A DNA stretch of 64,000 nucleotides from NCBI GenBank assembly GCA_002402375.1, contig DHFT01000039.1:12809-76808 (forward strand), in the 5' to 3' direction. A model generated the notes under the pieces. That model had not been told where the DNA came from, ran no database searches, and was given only the letters and a program-made list of their open reading frames with translations. Both the position numbers and the translations under genes were made by a program. Positions within the stretch are counted from its first letter, which is position 1, and each line of letters begins with the position of its first letter. The DNA comes from Elusimicrobia bacterium UBA4817 (GTDB lineage Bacteria; Elusimicrobiota; UBA8919). Of this stretch, positions 676 to 10,138 are shown in pieces.

Positions 676-2019
676 TTATTCGTCAACTTTTTTCGTATAA
701 AGAATTGAGATTTTGTCTCTATAAATAATCTTCCATTTTTTTTCATCAATTTTCCTTTCCGGTTTCAAAAGTAAAAAATCCGTGTTTGCGAAGATTTCAA
801 ATTTCTCAAAATAATTTTTAAGGAAGAATACGGGATAAACGGTATCATATCTGCCGTCTATTGCTACTTTACACTGCGGATAGAGATGCCAAATAAGATA
901 TTCGCCCCAGTTGAATTCGTTAAAGATATTGCCGCCGAGTTTTTTTTCTTTTAGGAAATTCACCGCATTAGCGGGAAACCTGTCGCTATCCGTGATTTCA
1001 AGCGACGGATTTTTTAGGGTAGCAAAAAGCAGCAGGAAAAACGGAGAAAACGCCGAAATAGTTAAAATTATAACGGTTGCTCTTTTTTTGATGCTTTCAA
1101 AAAACGGGAGCAAAAACGGTGCTACTATGATTGCGAATACAGGGATATGTCTTGAATATCTACTTGCGAATAAAATACTGAGTAGTATAACCAAAGACGA
1201 AAGATATTTTTTTTGGAAAAGATAAATTAGTGAACTGACCGCAGAGATAATTGCAATAAATACGAATAAGTAGCCGACGAGCGGGAAATCTGACAGTGTA
1301 AATTTGCCCCATTCAGTGATGTATTTTGCGGTAAGCGGGTTTGTAAGAGCGCGAAATATTGCTTTCCAAAGATTAACGTGATAGGGCGTTATCAGTGATG
1401 CGAGCGGGAGTGCTATAATAATAAAAAGATGTTTTCGGTTATATTTTTCCAAAAGAAGAATTAGGGCGATTGCTAATCCTACGACAAATCCGCCGTGTGA
1501 GTTTGACCACAAAACCATTGTCGGGAACAGTAAAATCAGAAACGGTAGTTTTCCGGTTTTTTTGTATAAATGTAGTAAAAACCCGAAAATGGAAAGATAA
1601 AGATAAGTAAAAATCTGCGGTCTAAAAGATGTGCCTATAAAAATAAGTGATAAGGCAAAAAGATAGACAGGTAGAATTATTTTGTAATTTTTAGAGTAAA
1701 TCAGCAGAGTTAAAAACAGAAAACATCCGGTAAAAAATCCGATTAAAATTTTAAGAAATATCAGTCCTTTATCGCCGGACTTTTTATATGTTGAGTAAAG
1801 AATAACTTCCGATAACCATTCATGATTTACCCATTTATTGCCGTAAGCGGTATATGAATAAAAATCTATTTTCGGAATATTTTTTGTTTCAACAATTTGT
1901 TTGCCGAAAAAAAGATGTCCCCAGAAGTCCACATCCTGCCATCTGTTGAAAAAGAAAAAAGGGCTTGCTAAAAGCCCCGCAAAAAAAATAATTACAATTT
2001 GTTTTTTTATGTTAGTCAC
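676..2019 (-). CDS. polytopic membrane protein, possibly a GT-C-fold (ArnT/PMT-like) glycosyltransferase
   Basis: 447 aa with about 11 hydrophobic segments and a hydrophilic C-terminal tail; no sharper family assignment possible by eye. Confidence 0.35.
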   Translation of the reverse strand: MTNIKKQIVIIFFAGLLASPFFFFNRWQDVDFWGHLFFGKQIVETKNIPKIDFYSYTAYGNKWVNHEWLSEVILYSTYKKSGDKGLIFLKILIGFFTGCFLFLTLLIYSKNYKIILPVYLFALSLIFIGTSFRPQIFTYLYLSIFGFLLHLYKKTGKLPFLILLFPTMVLWSNSHGGFVVGLAIALILLLEKYNRKHLFIIIALPLASLITPYHVNLWKAIFRALTNPLTAKYITEWGKFTLSDFPLVGYLFVFIAIISAVSSLIYLFQKKYLSSLVILLSILFASRYSRHIPVFAIIVAPFLLPFFESIKKRATVIILTISAFSPFFLLLFATLKNPSLEITDSDRFPANAVNFLKEKKLGGNIFNEFNWGEYLIWHLYPQCKVAIDGRYDTVYPVFFLKNYFEKFEIFANTDFLLLKPERKIDEKKWKIIYRDKISILYTKKVDE

Positions 2020-4622
2020 TTTTGCTTTATAATTTTCTCAACGGATGATATCGCTTCATCCAGTTTTGAAATATCTTTTCCGCCGGCTTGTGCGAGGTCA
2101 ATTTTTCCGCCTCCTCCGCCGCCTACGATTTTTGATATTTCTTTTACAATTATTCTGGCATCAAATTTATCGGCGAGGTCTTTTGTAATTGACACAATGA
2201 GCGTCGGTTTTTCGTCAATAACAGAACCTAATACCACAATGCCTGATTTGATTTTGTTTTTCAGATTGTCGGAAGTGCTTCTGAGTTCATCTATGGATGT
2301 TATTTCCGTTTTTACCGCCAGTAGTTTTATGCCGTTGATTTCTTTAAGGTTTTTCAGTAAATCGTTTTCCTGTATTTTCGGTGTTTTTGAAATGCCCTTT
2401 TCAAGTTTTTTTTTATCGTCTGCAAGTTTTTGGAGTTTTGTAACGACTTCCGCCCGGGATGATTTCAATATCTCGGCCATTTCATCAATCGTTTCCCGCT
2501 GATTTTTCATAAAGTTATACGCTTCCATTCCGGTTATTGCTTCTATCCGCCGAAGACCGCTTCCGATACTGCCTTCGGATAAAATTATAAATTGTCCGAT
2601 TTCTCCGGTTGATTTACAATGAGTTCCGCCGCACAGTTCTACACTTTCAGGATTTTTTTCGTTTCCGGTAATGACGCACCGAACTTTCTCGCCGTATTTT
2701 TCGCCGAATAAAGCGAGCGCCCCCATTTTTTTTGCCTCGGCCACCGTCGTAATTTTTGTCGTCACTTTCAGATTTTCAAGAATTTTTTCATTAACATATT
2801 TTTCTATTAAAATCAGTTCCTCTTTTTTTAATTGTGTCGGATGGGAAAAATCAAATCTGAATCTGTCGTCGCTGACTTGTGAGCCGCGCTGAACGATATG
2901 GGTGCCGATAATTTGTCTTAAACTCTTATGCAAAAGATGAGTAGCGGTATGATTTCGCATAATGTTTTTTCTTCTTTCAAGAGCAATTTCGGCTCCAACC
3001 GTTTCGCCCGTTTTGATAATGCCTTTTATGATTTTTGCTCTGTGGATGATAAGGTTTTCAACCGGTTTCTGCGTATCAATAATTTCTACCTGACTTTGGA
3101 CTTCGGACTTCGGACTTCGGACTATTAACCTGCCCCTATCCCCAACCTGTCCGCCCGCTTCCCCGTAAAAAGGCGTCTCTTTTAGGATTATTTCCACCTC
3201 ATCGCCTTCGTTTGCCTGTTCAATAATTTTTCCGTCTTTTACTATTGCGGCTATTTTGGTTTTTGTTTTTGTCTCATCGTAGCCGGTAAAAACGGTATCT
3301 GCGAATTTTTTGTGAAGTTCAAAATAATTGCTCATATCAATATCTCCCGAACCTTTCCACGAAGTTTTGGAACGATTTTTTTGTTTCTCCATTTCTTCTT
3401 CAAACCCCTTGTCGTCTATAGATATTTCAGATTCAGCCAGAAGTTCTTTTGTTAAATCAAACGGGAAGCCGTAAGTATCATATAGTAAAAATGCATCTTT
3501 CCCGGAAATTGTTTTTCTGGATTTTTTTAATTCTTCAAGCATTTCAATCCCGCGCTCCAGCGTCATTAAAAATTTTTCTTCCTCCATTTTTATTATTCTT
3601 GCTATGTACTCGCGATTCAAATCCAGTTCAGGATATGCCGGTTTCATCGTCTCAACCACTTCAACTGCGATTCTGTAAAGGAACGGTTTGTCCATCTGCA
3701 ATTTTTTGCCGTGAGTAATTGCTCTTCTCAGGATTCTTCTTAAAACATAACCTCTTCCTTCATTGGACGGTAAAATGCCGTCGGAAATAAGAAATGTGAT
3801 TGCTCTCGCGTGGTCAGCAATTATTTTGGTAGATATATCATTTTTAATATCAGACAGGTTTTTTATAAAATCAATAATTCTTTTAAGCTCGTCGGTTTCA
3901 AAATTTGTTTTTGCCCTCTGAACCACCGCCGCCAGCCGTTCAAGTCCCATCCCGGTATCAATATTTTTTTGCGGAAGATTTTTTAATGTGCCGTCTGCTT
4001 GTTTGTCAAATTGCGTGAATACGAGGTTCCATACCTCAATATACCTGTCGCAGTCGCACCCCGGGCCGCAGGTTTTTTTGCCACAGCCGTTTCCTGTTCC
4101 CGTATCGTATAAAATTTCGGAACAGGGTCCGCAGGGACCGGTTTCTCCCATCTGCCAGAAGTTTGACGCCTCGCCTAATTTTACGATTTTGTTTAAAGGC
4201 AGGATTTTTTCCCAGATTTTGTATGCCTCGTCGTCATCTTTGTAGACGGAAGCGTAAAGTTTGTCCTTATCAAGTTTAAGTTCAACGGTCAGAAATTCCC
4301 ACGCCCACAAAATCGCTTCTTTTTTGAAATAATCGCCGAATGAAAAATTACCGAGCATCTCAAAAAACGTAAGATGTCTTGCGGTATGTCCGACATTTTC
4401 AATATCGGATGTCCTGAAACATTTCTGGACGGACGTCGCCCGCTGGTAATCGCTTTTGATTTTCTGCCTGCCTAAAAAATAATTTTTGAACTGCACCATT
4501 CCCGCCGATGTAAAAAGCAGCGTCGGGTCGGAAGAGGGCACCAGCGAGTCGCTCTTAAAAACGGTATGTTCTTTTTCTTTAAAAAACCTCAAAAATTTTT
4601 GTCTGATTTCGTTTGTAGTCAT
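2016..4622 (-). CDS. alaS: alanine--tRNA ligase
   Basis: 868 aa; N-terminus 'EIRQKFLRFFKEKEHTVFKSDSLVPSSDPTLLFTSAGMVQFK', class II catalytic core, editing domain (HxxxH), C-terminal GGGGG segment. Confidence 0.95.
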   Translation of the reverse strand: MTTNEIRQKFLRFFKEKEHTVFKSDSLVPSSDPTLLFTSAGMVQFKNYFLGRQKIKSDYQRATSVQKCFRTSDIENVGHTARHLTFFEMLGNFSFGDYFKKEAILWAWEFLTVELKLDKDKLYASVYKDDDEAYKIWEKILPLNKIVKLGEASNFWQMGETGPCGPCSEILYDTGTGNGCGKKTCGPGCDCDRYIEVWNLVFTQFDKQADGTLKNLPQKNIDTGMGLERLAAVVQRAKTNFETDELKRIIDFIKNLSDIKNDISTKIIADHARAITFLISDGILPSNEGRGYVLRRILRRAITHGKKLQMDKPFLYRIAVEVVETMKPAYPELDLNREYIARIIKMEEEKFLMTLERGIEMLEELKKSRKTISGKDAFLLYDTYGFPFDLTKELLAESEISIDDKGFEEEMEKQKNRSKTSWKGSGDIDMSNYFELHKKFADTVFTGYDETKTKTKIAAIVKDGKIIEQANEGDEVEIILKETPFYGEAGGQVGDRGRLIVRSPKSEVQSQVEIIDTQKPVENLIIHRAKIIKGIIKTGETVGAEIALERRKNIMRNHTATHLLHKSLRQIIGTHIVQRGSQVSDDRFRFDFSHPTQLKKEELILIEKYVNEKILENLKVTTKITTVAEAKKMGALALFGEKYGEKVRCVITGNEKNPESVELCGGTHCKSTGEIGQFIILSEGSIGSGLRRIEAITGMEAYNFMKNQRETIDEMAEILKSSRAEVVTKLQKLADDKKKLEKGISKTPKIQENDLLKNLKEINGIKLLAVKTEITSIDELRSTSDNLKNKIKSGIVVLGSVIDEKPTLIVSITKDLADKFDARIIVKEISKIVGGGGGGKIDLAQAGGKDISKLDEAISSVEKIIKQK

Positions 4623-4664
4623 AAATTACTTGGTGTCTGTTAAAATTATTAAAGATTAGAGAAG

Positions 4665-5039
4665 TTAATGTTGACTATTCACTTCAAAAATATTACCCAT
4701 CTTAAACATTGGCATAAACATAGATATAATTGTTACAAAGAATGTCAATCCTATTATGATAAATAGCGAAACCAATAATAATTTTGTGATTCTGATGTTT
4801 TTCCCTATAACTATATAAATATAAATTGCACTTATTGGCAATAAAATTACAAGCCACATTTTAGATAAAAAAAATATGCTTTTGGTGATTTGCGATAAAT
4901 CAACTCCTAAACTATCAAATATTTCTCTAAACGAAGGAACGACACCAATTAAAATATAAGAACAAACTATTATTGCCGCGAGTAAACCCAATTTAAGGTC
5001 AGTCAATTTAGAAATATTATTTTTAACAAATTTTATCAT
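4665..5039 (-). CDS. small integral membrane protein (3 predicted TM helices), hypothetical
   Basis: 124 aa ORF made of hydrophobic segments; no recognisable family. Confidence 0.4.
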   Translation of the reverse strand: MIKFVKNNISKLTDLKLGLLAAIIVCSYILIGVVPSFREIFDSLGVDLSQITKSIFFLSKMWLVILLPISAIYIYIVIGKNIRITKLLLVSLFIIIGLTFFVTIISMFMPMFKMGNIFEVNSQH

Positions 5040-5078
5040 TTAATTTCCTTATTGCTAAAGCATCAAATCAATGTCTAA

Positions 5079-5120
5079 AATGACGCATACCCGTGAATAC
5101 CATTGAGATTTTATGTTCGG
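5079..5120. repeat. imperfect direct-repeat copy of the purH 3' end (partner at 6351..6391)
   Basis: About 41 bp, 4 mismatches: 'atgacgcatacccgtgaataccattgagattttatgttcgg' versus 'atggcgcatgcctgtgaataccattgagattttatgctcg'. The 6351..6391 copy encodes the purH C-terminus (…MVFTGMRHLRH*). Confidence 0.8.
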
Positions 5121-5148
5121 TATATTTTTCGGAATTGACCGCAGTTAA

Positions 5149-6279
5149 TTATCCGATAATATCAAAATAATTATCCTTAGTTATAACGGTAAATTTAGAA
5201 TTTTTATATGTTTCAACAAAATCTTTCGGCGGTTTTACGCCTTTTGCTTTCCATTTGCATTCAAAACCCCAAAGACATCCAGCCCTTTCTTCAACAAAAT
5301 CAACCTCTTTCTGGTCGTAAGTCCTCCAGAAATATTTATTGCAATGAATATTTTTATAATTTAATTTTTTAATTCTTTCCGAAATACAATAATTCTCCCA
5401 TAATTTTCCTATGTCATCCCGCATAGTAATACTATTATAATTTGAAATAATAGCGTTGCGAACACCGTTGTCCCAAAAATAATATCGCGGTGTTTTTGTA
5501 TATTCCTTCCTTAAATTCCTGCTGAAACCGTATAATGAAAATAACACATAAGATTTTTCAAGTAATTCAAGATACCTCATCACCGTTTTTTTATTTGCAT
5601 TTAAGTTATTAGCGAGTTCAGAATATGAAATATCGTTACCGATTTGGAATGCTATAAGTCGTAATAAATTAAAAATGAATAAAGAGTTTTTGAGATTGTC
5701 CAATTGCAAAATATCTCTCAATAAATAACCGTCTCTTATTGATTCAAGCAGTTCTTTCTTTTCTTTTAAGGATTTTGCCGTCAATACCTGCGGATACATT
5801 CCATATATCAATCTGTCCTCTAAATTTTCCTTGTTTTTCAGAAAATCCTGATAATTGTTTAATTCTAATTGTGATATGGGATAAAAATAATAGAACTTAC
5901 TTCTCTCCACCAGAGGTTCTCCTATTTTGTTTTTTAAGTCAAATGAGGAAGAACCGGAAACAAAAACTGAAATTCCCGGGATATTGTCAACAATAAGTTT
6001 TAGATTGAGTCCGATGTTGGGTATTTTCTGGGCTTCGTCTATAAAAAGATATTTATAACCGGCTGTAAACTTTTCAAGAATGCTTAACATCTGACTTGAT
6101 AATATTTCTAACACATCTAAATTTTCACCATTTACCATTAGAACAGGTTTGTTTTTTAATTTCTCTTTCACCGAATTCATTAGCACGGTCTTACCGGTTC
6201 TTCTGGCACCGAAGAGTCCGATGACTTTGCCTGCCTTTAGAGACGATAGTATCTGATTTTCAATAAATCTGGGTATCAT
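5149..6279 (-). CDS. AAA+ ATPase with DUF4143-type C-terminal domain (COG1373-like)
   Basis: 376 aa; Walker A 'GARRTGKT'; N-terminal AAA domain followed by the extension typical of DUF4143 ATPases. Confidence 0.7.
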   Translation of the reverse strand: MIPRFIENQILSSLKAGKVIGLFGARRTGKTVLMNSVKEKLKNKPVLMVNGENLDVLEILSSQMLSILEKFTAGYKYLFIDEAQKIPNIGLNLKLIVDNIPGISVFVSGSSSFDLKNKIGEPLVERSKFYYFYPISQLELNNYQDFLKNKENLEDRLIYGMYPQVLTAKSLKEKKELLESIRDGYLLRDILQLDNLKNSLFIFNLLRLIAFQIGNDISYSELANNLNANKKTVMRYLELLEKSYVLFSLYGFSRNLRKEYTKTPRYYFWDNGVRNAIISNYNSITMRDDIGKLWENYCISERIKKLNYKNIHCNKYFWRTYDQKEVDFVEERAGCLWGFECKWKAKGVKPPKDFVETYKNSKFTVITKDNYFDIIG

Positions 6280-6339
6280 GGTGTCTGTATTTTAATAAAT
6301 ATATCTGGTTTTGTCAAGAGTTTTTTGTTTCCAAAATTT

Positions 6340-7851
6340 TTAATGACGGAGATGGCGCATGCCTGTGAATACCATTGAGATTTTATGCTCGTTGCAGACG
6401 GTTATTGATTCGTTATCTTTTACCGAGCCGCCGGGCTGAATAATTGCTTTTACGCCGATTTTTGCTGCTTCGTTGACGACATCTTTGAACGGGAAAAATG
6501 CGTCGGAGGATAAAACAAGCGGTAGACGGTAGACGGTAGACGGTAGACGGATTAAGTTCATTTTCATTTTTGCGATTTTTAGTGAGTCAATCCTTGACAT
6601 TTGGCCGCCGCCGATTCCTACCGTTCGGGTGCCTCTGGCAAGGACGATTGCATTTGATTTTACATATTTTGCGACGGTAAAAGCAAATTTTAACGATTCC
6701 AATTCTTCTTTTGCCGGTTTTGTCTTTGTAACAATTTTTAACTTGTCAAAAATTTTGCTGTCCTTTTCCTGAACAAGAAAGCCGTCGGAAATACTGCGGA
6801 ACTCAAGCGATTGAGCAAGTGAGCGATTAAGCGAGTGAGTTAAAACTCTTAAATTTTGTTTTTGCGAAAATATTTTCAGCGCATCTTTTGAATAATTCGG
6901 CGCAATAACACACTCGGTAAAAATTTTTATTACGTCTCTTGCGGTTCTGCCATCCACGATTTTATTAAACGCTACAATTCCGCCGAATGCCGAAACGGGG
7001 TCGCAGGCAAGAGCATTTTTGTAAGCATCAAAAATAGTTTTAGCGGTTGCAACTCCACAAGGATTATTATGCTTTACAATCACACAAGCAGGTTTTTCAA
7101 ATTCGCAAACCAGATTAAAAGCAGAATCCATATCAAGATAATTGTTATAAGAAAGTTCTTTCCCTTGCAGTTGTTTTACACTTCCGACTTCCGACTTCCC
7201 ACTTCCGATATGGTAAACTGCCGCTTTCTGATGAGGATTTTCACCGTACCGCAAGTCGGAAAATTTTTTAAGTCCAACTGTTATTTTTTCTGGAAACTGC
7301 TCGTCGGTAAAATAATTTGAAATAATAGAATCATAATAAGCGGTATGGCTGAATGCCTTTGCCGCAAGTTTTTTTCTGAATGAAAAATCTATCTTTGAAC
7401 TTTTAATATTATCTATGATGTTAGAATAATCTTTCGTGTCGCAGACCGCCAGAACATTCTCAAAATTTTTTGCGGCCGCGCGGAGCATCGCCACTCCGCC
7501 GATATCTATATTTTCAACTGAAGGTTTTTCTTCAAACGGATAAAGATTTATAACGACGATATCAATCGCGTTAATTTTGTGTTTTTTCAACTCGTCAATA
7601 TGTTGTTTTGTCTTTTTTGCCAGTATTCCCGCGTGGATTTTCGGATGCAGTGTCTTTACCCGCCCGTCAAGGATTTCCGGAAAGCCAGTAATTTTTTCAA
7701 CCGAAACGACGGAAATTCCCACTTTTTTAAGAAACGTTACTGTCCCGCCGGTTGATATAATTTTGACATCCAATTTTTTAAGTTCTTTTGCAAATTCAAC
7801 AATTCCGGTTTTGTCCGATACGCTGATTAATGCTGTTTTAATAGTTTTCAT
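6340..7851 (-). CDS. purH: bifunctional AICAR formyltransferase / IMP cyclohydrolase
   Basis: 503 aa; MGS-like N-terminal domain (KTALISVSDKTG…GGT) and C-terminus 'SDAFFPF…IIQPGGS…MVFTGMRHLRH' matching PurH. Confidence 0.95.
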   Translation of the reverse strand: MKTIKTALISVSDKTGIVEFAKELKKLDVKIISTGGTVTFLKKVGISVVSVEKITGFPEILDGRVKTLHPKIHAGILAKKTKQHIDELKKHKINAIDIVVINLYPFEEKPSVENIDIGGVAMLRAAAKNFENVLAVCDTKDYSNIIDNIKSSKIDFSFRKKLAAKAFSHTAYYDSIISNYFTDEQFPEKITVGLKKFSDLRYGENPHQKAAVYHIGSGKSEVGSVKQLQGKELSYNNYLDMDSAFNLVCEFEKPACVIVKHNNPCGVATAKTIFDAYKNALACDPVSAFGGIVAFNKIVDGRTARDVIKIFTECVIAPNYSKDALKIFSQKQNLRVLTHSLNRSLAQSLEFRSISDGFLVQEKDSKIFDKLKIVTKTKPAKEELESLKFAFTVAKYVKSNAIVLARGTRTVGIGGGQMSRIDSLKIAKMKMNLIRLPSTVYRLPLVLSSDAFFPFKDVVNEAAKIGVKAIIQPGGSVKDNESITVCNEHKISMVFTGMRHLRH

Positions 7852-8329
7852 CGGTGTCCTGTCCCGCGCCTTTTATAAATTTTGCTATGACACTTTCAAT
7901 CGTGTCGTAAGAAAATCCCCTGCCGGCAAGAAACTGAAAAATTTTACTCTTTGCTTTTAACGGTTCAAGTTTTTTATATCTCGCAAGTTTATTTTTTATT
8001 GTGTCAAAGGCCAGTTCCGTCTCGTCAATTTCCAGAGAGCTTAAAATTCCGGATGCCGTTTCGCGCGGTATTCCTTTTCTGTTTAATTCCCGCATAATAA
8101 AATTTTTGCTTTTATTGTGACGCAGGCGGTATTCCATCCATTCTTTCGCAAATTTTTCGTCGTCAATCAATTTTAATTTTTTCAATTTTTCTATTACGGT
8201 ATCAACAACGGTGCTATCATAATTTTTTCCGATTTTATCCCGTATCTCTTTTTCGGAATGGTTTCTCCTGGCAAAAAGCCAGAACGCATATTTTTGTGCC
8301 TTGTGATAATTCGTGGATTTTTCTTTCAT
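7838..8329 (-). CDS. recX: RecX family recombination regulator
   Basis: 163 aa, three-helix repeat architecture, 'YAFWLFARRNHSEKEIRDKI' RecX-like N-terminus. Confidence 0.7.
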   Translation of the reverse strand: MKEKSTNYHKAQKYAFWLFARRNHSEKEIRDKIGKNYDSTVVDTVIEKLKKLKLIDDEKFAKEWMEYRLRHNKSKNFIMRELNRKGIPRETASGILSSLEIDETELAFDTIKNKLARYKKLEPLKAKSKIFQFLAGRGFSYDTIESVIAKFIKGAGQDTDENY

Positions 8330-9360
8330 ATTTCAATGATACTATATTTTTTTTCTCCGAGTCCGAGTTTTACTGCGTAATCAAGTTGCACCGAGTAATC
8401 AATATCCGGAAATATGTGCTTGAAAAAATCGCTGCCGAATTTTTTGTTAACCAGTTTAAAAGATGCCGTATCAATCGCTACTGGGTCGCAAGATGCCAAA
8501 ATTCCTATATCGGGAATTTGCGGACTCTCTTTTGTCTCGTAGCAATCGCAGAATTTTGTTATGTAGTTCAGAAAATTTATGTAAATCGCTTTTTTATTTT
8601 TTAAGCACCCTGCGGCATATTCCGCCATTTTTTCCTGTAAGTTTTTCACGGATTCATCCCATGGAATTTTTATCGCATATTGCTCACAGGACAAAATACA
8701 TTCGCCGCACCCGATACAGGCAGTTTTATTTATTATAATTTTTTTATTCACAAGTTTCAAGGCATTTGACGGACACCACTTAATACAATTGCCGCATCCG
8801 ATACACTTTTCAGGTTTAATTTCAGGTTTTACGGAATTATGCATTTCGTATTTTCCGGCCCGTGCCCCGCAACCCATTCCGATATTTTTGATTGCCCCGC
8901 CGAACCCGGAAATCTCATGTCCCTTGAAGTGGGTTAAAAAAATAAATTTATCCGTATAATAAATATCCCGCGCGATTTTTACGGATTTAAAATGTTTTAG
9001 ATTTACATCAACATCTATGTAAGAATTTCCCCGCAGCCCGTCGGCAATTATTATCGGGCATCCGCAAATACCGAAACCGTGTTCAATCGCAATATTAAGA
9101 TGGTCAACGGCATTTGCCCGGCTTCCCCTGTAGATTGTATTTGCGTCGGTTAAAAACGGTTTTCCGCCGCGCGATTTTACAATTTCAACAATCGGTTTTA
9201 CATATTCGGGTTTGATGTAACCCTTGTTTCCTTTTTCTCCGAAATGAATTTTAATTGCTACGAAATCATTTTTAGAAACGAGCGAATTTATTCCCGATTT
9301 TTCCGCTATTTTTTTTACCGTTTCTGCCGAAAACGTCTTTGTGAAATATACATTACTCAT
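8326..9360 (-). CDS. DUF362-domain protein with two 4Fe-4S ferredoxin motifs
   Basis: 344 aa; 'CIGCGNCIKWCP' and 'CIGCGECILSCEQ' CxxCxxCxxxCP clusters embedded in a DUF362-like fold. Confidence 0.6.
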   Translation of the reverse strand: MSNVYFTKTFSAETVKKIAEKSGINSLVSKNDFVAIKIHFGEKGNKGYIKPEYVKPIVEIVKSRGGKPFLTDANTIYRGSRANAVDHLNIAIEHGFGICGCPIIIADGLRGNSYIDVDVNLKHFKSVKIARDIYYTDKFIFLTHFKGHEISGFGGAIKNIGMGCGARAGKYEMHNSVKPEIKPEKCIGCGNCIKWCPSNALKLVNKKIIINKTACIGCGECILSCEQYAIKIPWDESVKNLQEKMAEYAAGCLKNKKAIYINFLNYITKFCDCYETKESPQIPDIGILASCDPVAIDTASFKLVNKKFGSDFFKHIFPDIDYSVQLDYAVKLGLGEKKYSIIEI

Positions 9361-9769
9361 AAAATCCCGTCTTTTTGCGGTTTTCCTTTTTTAGTGATTG
9401 CAGATGTTTGTTTTTTAGAATTTTTTCCTTTGCCCGTTTGGACCGTTTTCTTTTTTGCCGTCTTATCTTTTCTATTCTCTGTTGTTCCTTGCTTTTTATC
9501 CCAAGCAGCATCCGTTCAATTTTATCCGTCAGTATGCGTCTTGCAATAAAACGGTTCAATAACTGCGACCGTTCCCGCTGGCATTTTATTTCAATTCCGG
9601 TCGGAGTATGTTTCAGATAAACGCAAGTTGACACTTTGTTAAGATTTTGTCCGCCCTTGCCGCTTGACCGCAAAAATTTTTCTTCAATATCTTTTTCGTA
9701 TATGCCCAGTTTAAGCATTTTCTCTTCAAGCGATTTTTGTTTTTGCGAATTTATTCCGAGGTTAATCAT
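9353..9769 (-). CDS. arfB: alternative ribosome-rescue factor ArfB (GGQ-motif peptidyl-tRNA hydrolase)
   Basis: 'SSGKGGQNLNKVST' GGQ motif plus a highly basic C-terminal tail. Start moved to the internal ATG (MINLGINSQ…) forming an ATGA overlap with the upstream stop at 9766. Confidence 0.7.
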   Translation of the reverse strand: MINLGINSQKQKSLEEKMLKLGIYEKDIEEKFLRSSGKGGQNLNKVSTCVYLKHTPTGIEIKCQRERSQLLNRFIARRILTDKIERMLLGIKSKEQQRIEKIRRQKRKRSKRAKEKILKNKHLQSLKKENRKKTGFYE

Positions 9770-10138
9770 AATTTTAATTTTCCGATAATGTCGTCGGCAA
9801 TTCTCTGCGGTTTTAAGTTTGAATTGACGCATACAAGCGTGGTTTTTCCGGTGACGAGCATTCGTTTTGTCTCTTTTTCTTCAATTCTGTATGAGAGTTC
9901 CAGACGGGTGCCGGCAGCAGATTCAAGTTGTGTTTGAATAATAATTGTTTCGCCGTATCTTGCGGGTGATTTATAATCTAATTCGGCGTGTGCAACAACA
10001 AACAGAATTCCCTGTTCGGCGAGTTGTTTAACGCTTATGTCTTTTTCCAAAAACCACTCGGTTCTTGCCCTCTCAAAATATGTTAGGTAATTGGCATAAT
10101 AAACTAGGCCGCCGCAATCGGTGTCCTGATAATAAATT

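Follow-up and report, generated by a model that had tools for sequence, protein, structure and literature searches.

How did a solitary ATPase gene come to lie between two copies of the end of purH? The question is raised by a 64,000-nt stretch of the genome of Elusimicrobia bacterium UBA4817 (assembly GCA_002402375.1, contig DHFT01000039.1, positions 12,809 to 76,808 of the forward strand), referred to here as the window, in which the 3' terminus of purH is found again on the far side of a gene of PDC-S01, a candidate phage-defence family. The reading that we favour, with a probability of roughly 0.55, is that a minimal defence-candidate cassette was acquired by recombination inside the purH terminus, without any integrase encoded by the element itself.

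A direct-repeat search returned a single long repeat in the window (5070-5119 and 6342-6391, 50 nt, 84% identity, spacing 1272), which extends over the stop codons to 52 positions, 43 of them identical (table 1). The recurrence of the purH end beyond a single ATPase gene, reported in a first-pass annotation of the same DNA, is real, although five mismatches and not four are counted in the 41 nt that it had delimited. Both copies share an identical core of 23 nt, GTGAATACCATTGAGATTTTATG, which occurs exactly twice in the window (0 occurrences expected from 100 shuffles) and is also identical in the purH of three relatives (L004, L174 and L175; L-numbers designate comparison loci or contigs from other assemblies). 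The only open reading frame (ORF) between the two copies is that of the ATPase, and the non-ORF DNA separating it from the repeats amounts to approximately 60 nt, containing its own promoter, on one side and approximately 29 nt on the other. When translated in the frame of purH, the distal copy proves intact, ending in EHKISMVFTGMRHFRH, a stop codon and TTTG; the working purH ends in EHKISMVFTGMRHLRH and a stop codon. The GC content is 26-32% across 4650-6150 versus approximately 39-42% in purH. The earlier map, with its single-gene insert, lacked a 124-aa ORF situated between the distal repeat and alaS.

The same arrangement was retrieved from four other assemblies, obtained from different samples with different assemblers. 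Three of them are 100% identical (ENA ERZ27315072, Logan SRR5324132 and Logan SRR6486361), and the fourth (NCBI GCA_003486845.1, L093) differs solely by a 7-nt gap in purH. Because of this recurrence, the repeat structure is not an assembly artefact. With its 52 nt and spacing of 1272, it falls within the definition used by Furuta et al. (2010), namely a direct repeat of more than 30 bp around an insert of less than 20 kb. Among the ORFs and domains of the locus, no transposase, integrase or phage gene was found in or beside the insert, whose neighbours are purH, recX, DUF362 and alaS, and neither an integrase nor an integrase remnant was detected between purH and alaS. Nor do the ends of the unit display the terminal inverted repeat, or its coding part the transposase domain, by which an insertion sequence or a transposon is recognized.

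Nine bases differ between the two copies, and seven to eight of these differences are synonymous or exchange one stop codon for another. When the coding repeats of five loci are pooled, 26 differences are synonymous versus 6 non-synonymous, a bias associated with P = 6e-13 under neutrality and with P = 9e-8 if one copy alone is constrained, the latter value weakening to 6e-4 and 0.017 under strong transition bias. Relative to the family consensus, the orphan (distal) copy exhibits no non-synonymous change and keeps its stop, while nine of its positions differ from the copy borne by purH. All 119 informative purH homologues end in RHF[RK]H, and it is the orphan copy that keeps the Phe, a residue present in 119 of 120 homologues, the working purH having Leu; the orphan's final 19 nt, together with TTTG, are identical to the native purH end of L177. 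Because both copies carry this signature of purifying selection, they must, to judge from their codons, derive from different functional alleles of diverged lineages, which would in turn imply recombination between such lineages, with one gene end present on the incoming DNA.

The codons of the two copies form a mosaic. Relatives are matched by the 5' half of the proximal copy (GAG, ACA, CGC) and by the 3' half of the distal copy (TTT, AGA, TGA, TTTG), and not by the 3' half of the former (CTC, CGT, TAA) or the 5' half of the latter (GAA, ACG, CGT). Such a distribution, read from approximately seven sites, is compatible with a reciprocal exchange of the attL/attR type near His500. A sliding-window comparison of purH with its relatives was too noisy for a breakpoint inside purH to be read. 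Two other ideas about the repeat were set aside. Mutagenesis of the kind produced by diversity-generating retroelements does not fit the differences, which by eye are mainly third-position transitions and not adenine-specific, and no reverse transcriptase accompanies them. Read-through of the ATPase stop into the orphan end does not stand out either: the two are in frame in the window, in L114 and in both L143 copies, and out of frame in L112 and L126, i.e. 4/6 versus 1/3 expected, which is not significant.

The same ATPase lineage is found, at 84-94% amino acid identity, as a solitary gene at at least five unrelated loci: between HEAT-repeat and HTH genes (L084, a 92% homologue), beside a peptidase U32 gene (L086), between 4HBT and RF-1 genes (L088-L091 and L097/L098), before a tRNA gene (L096) and at further sites. 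Only the promoter and the ORF are common to the window and to L084, L086/L087, L088-L091, L094, L095, L096 and L102. At the DNA level, the homology of the window with the other loci sets in shortly before the -35 box (at window position 6336 in the comparison with L084) and breaks off 3 nt after the ATPase stop, or 15 nt after it in L175. Filled and empty states can be compared for one of these sites, as a 1.67-kb ATPase segment parts 4HBT and RF-1 in L088, two genes that share the overlap ATGA in L175 and L177 and are separated by 4 nt in L174; no long repeat was found at this L088 insertion site. The mobile unit is essentially a promoter with its ORF, and it recurs at loci other than purH.

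The interval between purH and alaS is a variable defence hot spot in relatives, the variable DNA starting within approximately 10 nt of the purH stop in every one of them. The first-pass annotation had noted that ATPases of this kind recur in defence islands, and relatives carry defence genes behind purH: AbiV and BrnT/CopG, next to a 365-aa gene without an assigned family, in L004; a type II restriction-modification (RM) system, composed of a methyltransferase and an MjaI-like endonuclease, in L005; a PDDEXK_5 gene in L174; and a TmtA-like fragment in L175, together with an IS200-type Y1 transposase and a 3' fragment of the window ATPase (93% amino acid and 90% nucleotide identity). In this last locus (8743-9985), whose PurH is 80% identical (83% in purH DNA), the ATPase is cut to its last 61 codons and lies directly behind the IS200-type Y1_Tnp/DnaA_C gene. 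An unrelated 124-aa membrane ORF occupies the position behind purH in L177. Each of these five relatives displays a single purH end. Unassigned to any Pfam family and with only weak PilC/GspF-like NCBIfam matches, the 124-aa ORF of the window constitutes a small unit made of a ribosome-binding site and the ORF. Copies with 83-86% DNA identity are located at unrelated loci of other Elusimicrobiota (L180, L184 and L186), with homology over window positions 5050-4689; as all its homologues are at other loci, none of them provides an empty site between purH and this ORF.

To what extent are such repeats a property of this ATPase? Direct repeats were sought at 73 ATPase loci, within 800 nt on both sides of the gene, and 20 loci yielded one at E < 0.01, versus 5 with a repeat in inverted orientation and 2 when the flanks of different loci were paired. 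Clean two-copy repeats are those of the window, L084, L126, L116, L094 and L161. The L084 repeat (74 nt, 89% identical) comprises a terminator hairpin together with the final 8 codons of the convergent HTH gene, the orphan keeping frame and stop, and the L126 repeat (52 nt) corresponds to the 3' end of an Rce1-like gene, with 5/5 differences synonymous, stop codon included; the others measure 88 nt (L116), 32 nt (L094) and 25 nt (L161). ATPase-flanking repeats range from 15 to 111 nt, unlike the short duplications of constant length left by transposons, and those of these six loci are mutually unrelated and devoid of a common motif. Repeats thus differ from locus to locus among the copies of the ATPase, which leaves no fixed att site. 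The downstream repeat copy starts at most 40 nt past the ATPase stop in 13 of 16 loci (P = 1e-14), and microhomology was detected at two junctions (7-nt TTGACAA in L094, 5-nt CTTGA in L116). Strong flanking repeats accompany 15 of 63 ATPase genes versus 2 of the 51 ORFs of comparable size in the neighbourhood (P = 0.003). This value corrects a first comparison (P = 0.06), in which two of the four control hits were AAA_14-DUF4143 genes and one was SoFic.

Repeated gene ends can also be stacked. Behind a 1092-aa Laminin_G_3 gene in L143, an array (3380-7640) comprises an HTH_3 ORF, two different AAA_14-DUF4143 genes and SoFic; an AbiEii gene lies beyond it. The last 15 or so codons of the Laminin_G_3 gene (NGGAAIKFGPSTGSP and the stop) recur, fully or partly, behind the HTH gene, both ATPase genes and SoFic, one of the copies forming an in-frame fusion with an ATPase. 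These copies preserve the peptide but use different codons (serine AGT versus TCA; stop TAA, TAG or TGA). The SoFic gene (PADLOC 4.7e-63) possesses its own tight 34-nt direct repeat, 97% identical (6447-6480 and 7568-7601), and this type of scar is therefore not confined to the ATPase family. Related genes are also found in other repeat-rich settings. In L115 (332-3200), two different AAA_14-DUF4143 genes (411 and 376 aa) stand in tandem, and a coiled-coil C-terminal module (..LIVDGVDIL..QQKQIDELKK.. and a stop) is found after each of them as well as elsewhere in the contig. In L105 (800-7700), a multi-copy intergenic repeat of approximately 80 nt and short repeats of the AATGACTATTGAC type part successive genes, two AAA_14-DUF4143 genes among them, and a 21-nt tandem array is present at 7840-8238.

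The cargo itself is a full-length member of PDC-S01 (PADLOC PDLC04789, E 8.6e-144, residues 1-375 on positions 1-373 of the 375-position profile), so that its earlier placement in a defence-associated family holds, and it also matches Pfam AAA_14 (4.9e-25) and DUF4143 (3.4e-40). The Walker A motif G24xRRxGKT31, the Walker B pair D81E82 and the nuclease motif formed by D327 and E340xK342 do not vary among 53 homologues. Its AlphaFold2 model (pLDDT 88.8) gave Foldseek matches to Apaf-1, plant NLRs, RuvB, DnaA, ORC/Cdc6, clamp loaders, TnsC/MuB and Avs5, and as modelled the protein is an AAA+/STAND-like ATPase with a helical and winged-helix module and a C-terminal nuclease domain. Modelled alone, this last domain (pLDDT 58) was too poor for a fold search, and a sequence search against solved structures returned nothing significant. 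The fold and the family literature point to a likely mode of action in which nucleotide-dependent sensing or oligomerization would license DNA cleavage. The best promoter match of the region is found at this gene (TTGACA at 6317-6312, a 17-nt spacer and TAAAAT at 6294-6289; 11/12) and ends 9 nt from the ATG; because of this distance and the lack of a Shine-Dalgarno sequence, the mRNA looks leaderless.

PDC-S01 was identified through 'guilt by embedding' as a single-gene phage-defence candidate, in which an ATPase is fused to a PD-(D/E)xK domain, and belongs to a class of candidates whose validation is mostly pending (PMC12988326; Payne et al. 2024 preprint). It ranks fourth in frequency among prokaryotic defences (PMC12988326). 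DUF4143 was assigned to the PD-(D/E)xK superfamily (PMC3424549), and the literature on DUF4143/COG1373 gives superfamily membership only. By analogy with this candidate family, the ATPase of the window would have a defence function. As a predicted ATPase-nuclease without a methyltransferase, it is not an RM system, and could at most be called type-IV-like by analogy. PDC-S01 homologues with 64-70% identity number in the thousands in other phyla, and relatives of the ATPase occur in 290 plasmid records, with distant matches in 8 phage records only. No close relative was found in viral contigs, and no small contig with terminal overlap, as expected of circular forms, was found.

Table 1. Features at and around the purH terminus, in window coordinates.
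Feature	Position	Strand	Evidence
purH (AICAR formyltransferase/IMP cyclohydrolase), 503 aa, ending in MRHLRH and a stop	6340..7851	-	Pfam AICARFT_IMPCHas 6e-122, MGS
Proximal repeat (direct repeat A, DR-A): functional last 16 codons and TAA stop of purH	6340..6391	-	
Core of 23 nt, shared by both repeat copies (other copy at 5093-5115)	6365..6387	.	
Left arm of the cassette with sigma-70-type promoter; kept in copies at other loci	6280..6339	-	Upstream alignment of 10 loci
PDC-S01 gene, 376 aa: AAA_14 P-loop ATPase, helical and winged-helix region, DUF4143 PD-(D/E)xK	5149..6279	-	
Tail of 15 nt, TTAACTGCGGTCAAT, past the ATPase stop; near-palindrome, common to the ATPase remnant of L175; right end of the conserved unit	5134..5148	-	
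Filler of 14 nt between cassette and distal repeat	5120..5133	-	
Distal repeat (DR-B): orphan purH terminus, in frame, canonical MRHFRH ending, TGA stop	5068..5119	-	
TTTG right behind the orphan stop; same as the native post-purH sequence of L177 (CATTTTAGACATTGATTTG)	5064..5067	-	
Membrane-type ORF, 124 aa, second small variable unit	4665..5039	-	
alaS, conserved right border of the variable interval	2016..4622	-	Synteny in L004, L005, L174

Two further features of the surroundings deserve mention. In a variable loop of purH, the coding strand carries a heptanucleotide tandem, (CCGTCTA)x4, at 6520-6547; three copies are present in GCA_003486845.1, which leads to a frameshift approximately 65 codons before the end of purH, and the Logan contigs L002 and L003 start at or just past this repeat. 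The difference could reflect slippage or phase variation, or an assembly error. On a larger scale, 47 of the 49 ORFs of at least 170 aa in the window lie on the minus strand, forming a co-directional housekeeping block around the low-GC segment at 4650-6300.

We infer the route of recombination as follows. A self-contained cassette, in which a strong promoter of its own and a leaderless-type start serve a single PDC-S01 gene, would have been joined to purH by a crossover within the conserved last 17 codons of the gene, between two diverged functional termini, one resident and the other brought on the incoming DNA. The event may have been a reciprocal, Campbell-type crossover, or a one-sided homologous exchange completed by an illegitimate join; the outcome would be one terminus on purH and one orphan terminus behind the cassette. 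The canonical ending of the orphan and its match with L177 suggest that it may be the native one.

Several observations weigh against this scenario. L175 carries the same ATPase lineage behind purH and no purH-end repeat after it; the ATPase at this locus without the repeat was what the first-pass annotation had named as contrary to its own interpretation, and L175 supplies it in part, as a fragment of the gene. A same-species empty site was not found, exact-match searches with the ATPase, alaS and the 124-aa ORF returning contigs of the filled arrangement only, and the nearest purH relatives (L174, L175 and L177), 82-85% identical in DNA (77-85% over the relatives when L004 and L005 are included), hold other cargo. 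Approximately 75% of the ATPase loci are without a long flanking repeat, and some repeats are multi-copy and not unique duplications (intergenic in L105 and L110, the coiled-coil module in L112/L114/L115). When each copy is considered in full, L174, the nearest relative, is the closer match for DR-A and L177 for DR-B, which leaves the direction of the event ambiguous. The orphan end could also have arrived with the downstream 124-aa unit and not have been displaced by the ATPase. Lastly, the runs of identity in the repeat arms are short (23 nt here, approximately 11 nt in L143), which is marginal for RecA-type recombination.

The explanation closest to the first-pass annotation is a remnant of the type known as cis-mobilizable elements (CIMEs): an element bearing an integrase would have entered the 3' end of purH with a replacement end and then decayed to the ATPase with attL and attR, or an integrase acting in trans would mobilize the cassette. 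Repeats overlapping a gene's 3' end, a reconstituted gene end and a codon mosaic that fits a reciprocal crossover are all in its favour, and arrays such as that of L143, with a gene-end copy after each of three to four cassettes (the later ones partial), resemble the 'accretion' of CIMEs and integrative mobilizable elements (IMEs; PMC5704250). We nevertheless hold it to be unlikely. Neither an integrase nor a fragment of one is present in the interval, where the two short non-ORF segments leave little room; the unit, 84-94% identical, sits at at least five other loci with different repeats or none and no common motif; its boundaries hug the promoter and the stop at every locus, which random decay would not be expected to repeat; and identity around the inferred crossover covers approximately 3 nt only. 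The interpretation of the first-pass annotation is supported in part, by the foreign low-GC insert bounded by two purH termini and by the displaced copy still in frame, and the attL/attR-like mosaic is compatible with it. Its degraded integrative element having lost the integrase is not supported, in view of the missing remnant, the gene-hugging boundaries and the solitary copies with different repeats elsewhere.

Could the nuclease be the agent of its own insertion? An autonomous selfish element, in which PDC-S01 makes the breaks for the insertion of its own gene, for example as distant staggered nicks, would generate long target duplications of variable length, a scheme already put forward for restriction-modification genes. 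The sole gene of the unit does encode a predicted nuclease with intact D..ExK and Walker motifs, the flanking repeats are variable (15-110 nt) and abut the ends of the unit, with microhomology at the L094 and L116 junctions, and the family has spread horizontally very widely (64-70% identity across phyla); Furuta et al. also propose double-strand breakage as a common property (PMC2853133). A duplication of this origin, however, would be identical at birth and its orphan would then decay neutrally, which is contradicted by the 26:6 synonymous bias. As the ends of the unit show no conserved terminal sequences or inverted repeats, the majority of copies are without repeats, and the SoFic gene, which has no nuclease, displays the same kind of tight 34-nt repeat, we regard such an element as improbable.

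A local tandem duplication, or a classical target-site duplication, followed by drift in place is the simplest source of a direct repeat, and the repeats of L115 and L116 are indeed 97-100% identical; yet we give it very little credence for purH, where the orphan shows no non-synonymous change against the consensus and keeps its stop despite nine differences from DR-A. Neutral decay of one copy is likewise rejected by the pooled bias over five loci (P = 9e-8, or 6e-4 and 0.017 with transition bias), and the L143 copies keep their peptide while using different serine codon families. Chance similarity, a dispersed repeat of the repetitive extragenic palindromic (REP) type, which the first-pass annotation had named as an alternative, or a metagenome assembly chimera can practically be dismissed, for although AT-rich intergenic DNA yields many short chance repeats, this one has two copies in 64 kb versus 0 expected, is purH coding sequence and is found in four independent assemblies. 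A repeat of the REP type does fit some other loci, namely L105 and L110.

A broader and more doubtful version of the favoured reading would have PDC-S01 and SoFic-like single-gene defence cassettes travel as a promoter and ORF with a short, selection-maintained mimic of a host gene's 3' end. Crossover in the mimicked gene end, with no recombinase of the cassette's own, might then displace the resident end each time and build arrays such as that of L143, a possibility that we put forward very tentatively. If true, it would amount to a homology-addressed, integron-like route for defence genes into hot spots considered free of mobility genes. Taken alone, the window locus is an ordinary example: the gene belongs to a known candidate defence family and the scar to a known, mechanistically unsolved kind. 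PDC-S01 is among the most abundant reported defence candidates in bacteria and archaea, and the window and its related loci supply concrete junctions, with promoter-to-stop units, selected-looking orphan gene ends and stacked arrays. These junctions bear on how defence genes enter hot spots without mobility genes, and lead to predictions on excision circles and on dependence on recA and on the nuclease. The wider pattern of selected-looking orphan ends and of arrays separated by gene ends merits a systematic survey.

A close parallel is found in the 'insertion with long target duplication' known for restriction-modification genes and reportedly described by Nobusato et al. in 2000. According to Furuta et al. 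(PMC2853133), it concerns restriction genes of all types, with imperfect repeats of 30-420 bp and no mobility genes; some repeats extend over a gene's 3' end, one case involves mcrA, a type IV gene standing alone, and the enzymology is unsolved. The insert in the window resembles these cases in being a nuclease-encoding, defence-type unit without a mobility gene, with long, imperfect direct repeats of variable length and a deviant GC content. There, the repeat is single-copy in genomes without the insert; here, the relatives have a single purH end and hold other cargo. The cargo of the window is a PDC-S01 ATPase-nuclease and not a demonstrated restriction enzyme. In the passages of PMC2853133 consulted, copies differing almost only at synonymous sites, as in the window, are not reported, nor are arrays in which every cassette is followed by a copied gene end (L143, L115).

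Like CIMEs (Guedon et al. 2017, PMC5704250), the insert lacks recombination genes, and tandem build-up is seen at related loci; unlike them, it shows no remains of an IME or of an integrative and conjugative element, consists of a single gene with less than 100 nt of extra DNA, and has neither a fixed att core nor an identified cognate integrase. It agrees with PADLOC PDC-S01 in its full-length profile match, its combination of an ATPase with PD-(D/E)xK and its solitary occurrence in or beside other defence genes, a family whose mode of insertion is not described in the Payne et al. 2024 preprint or in PMC12988326. As in integron cassettes, single genes without their own recombinase are arranged in arrays split by a recurring site (L143, L105), but these genes are each equipped with a promoter, what recurs between them is the copied end of a host gene and not an attC hairpin, and no IntI was seen at these loci. 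Exchange by flanking homology is known for defence hot spots flanked by core genes, as is homology-facilitated illegitimate recombination. The purH-alaS interval is similar to such hot spots, with variable defence cargo between housekeeping genes, no mobility genes and a left border at the purH stop in every relative. It differs from them in its duplicated gene end, which a plain double crossover would not leave, and which calls for a single or one-sided crossover.

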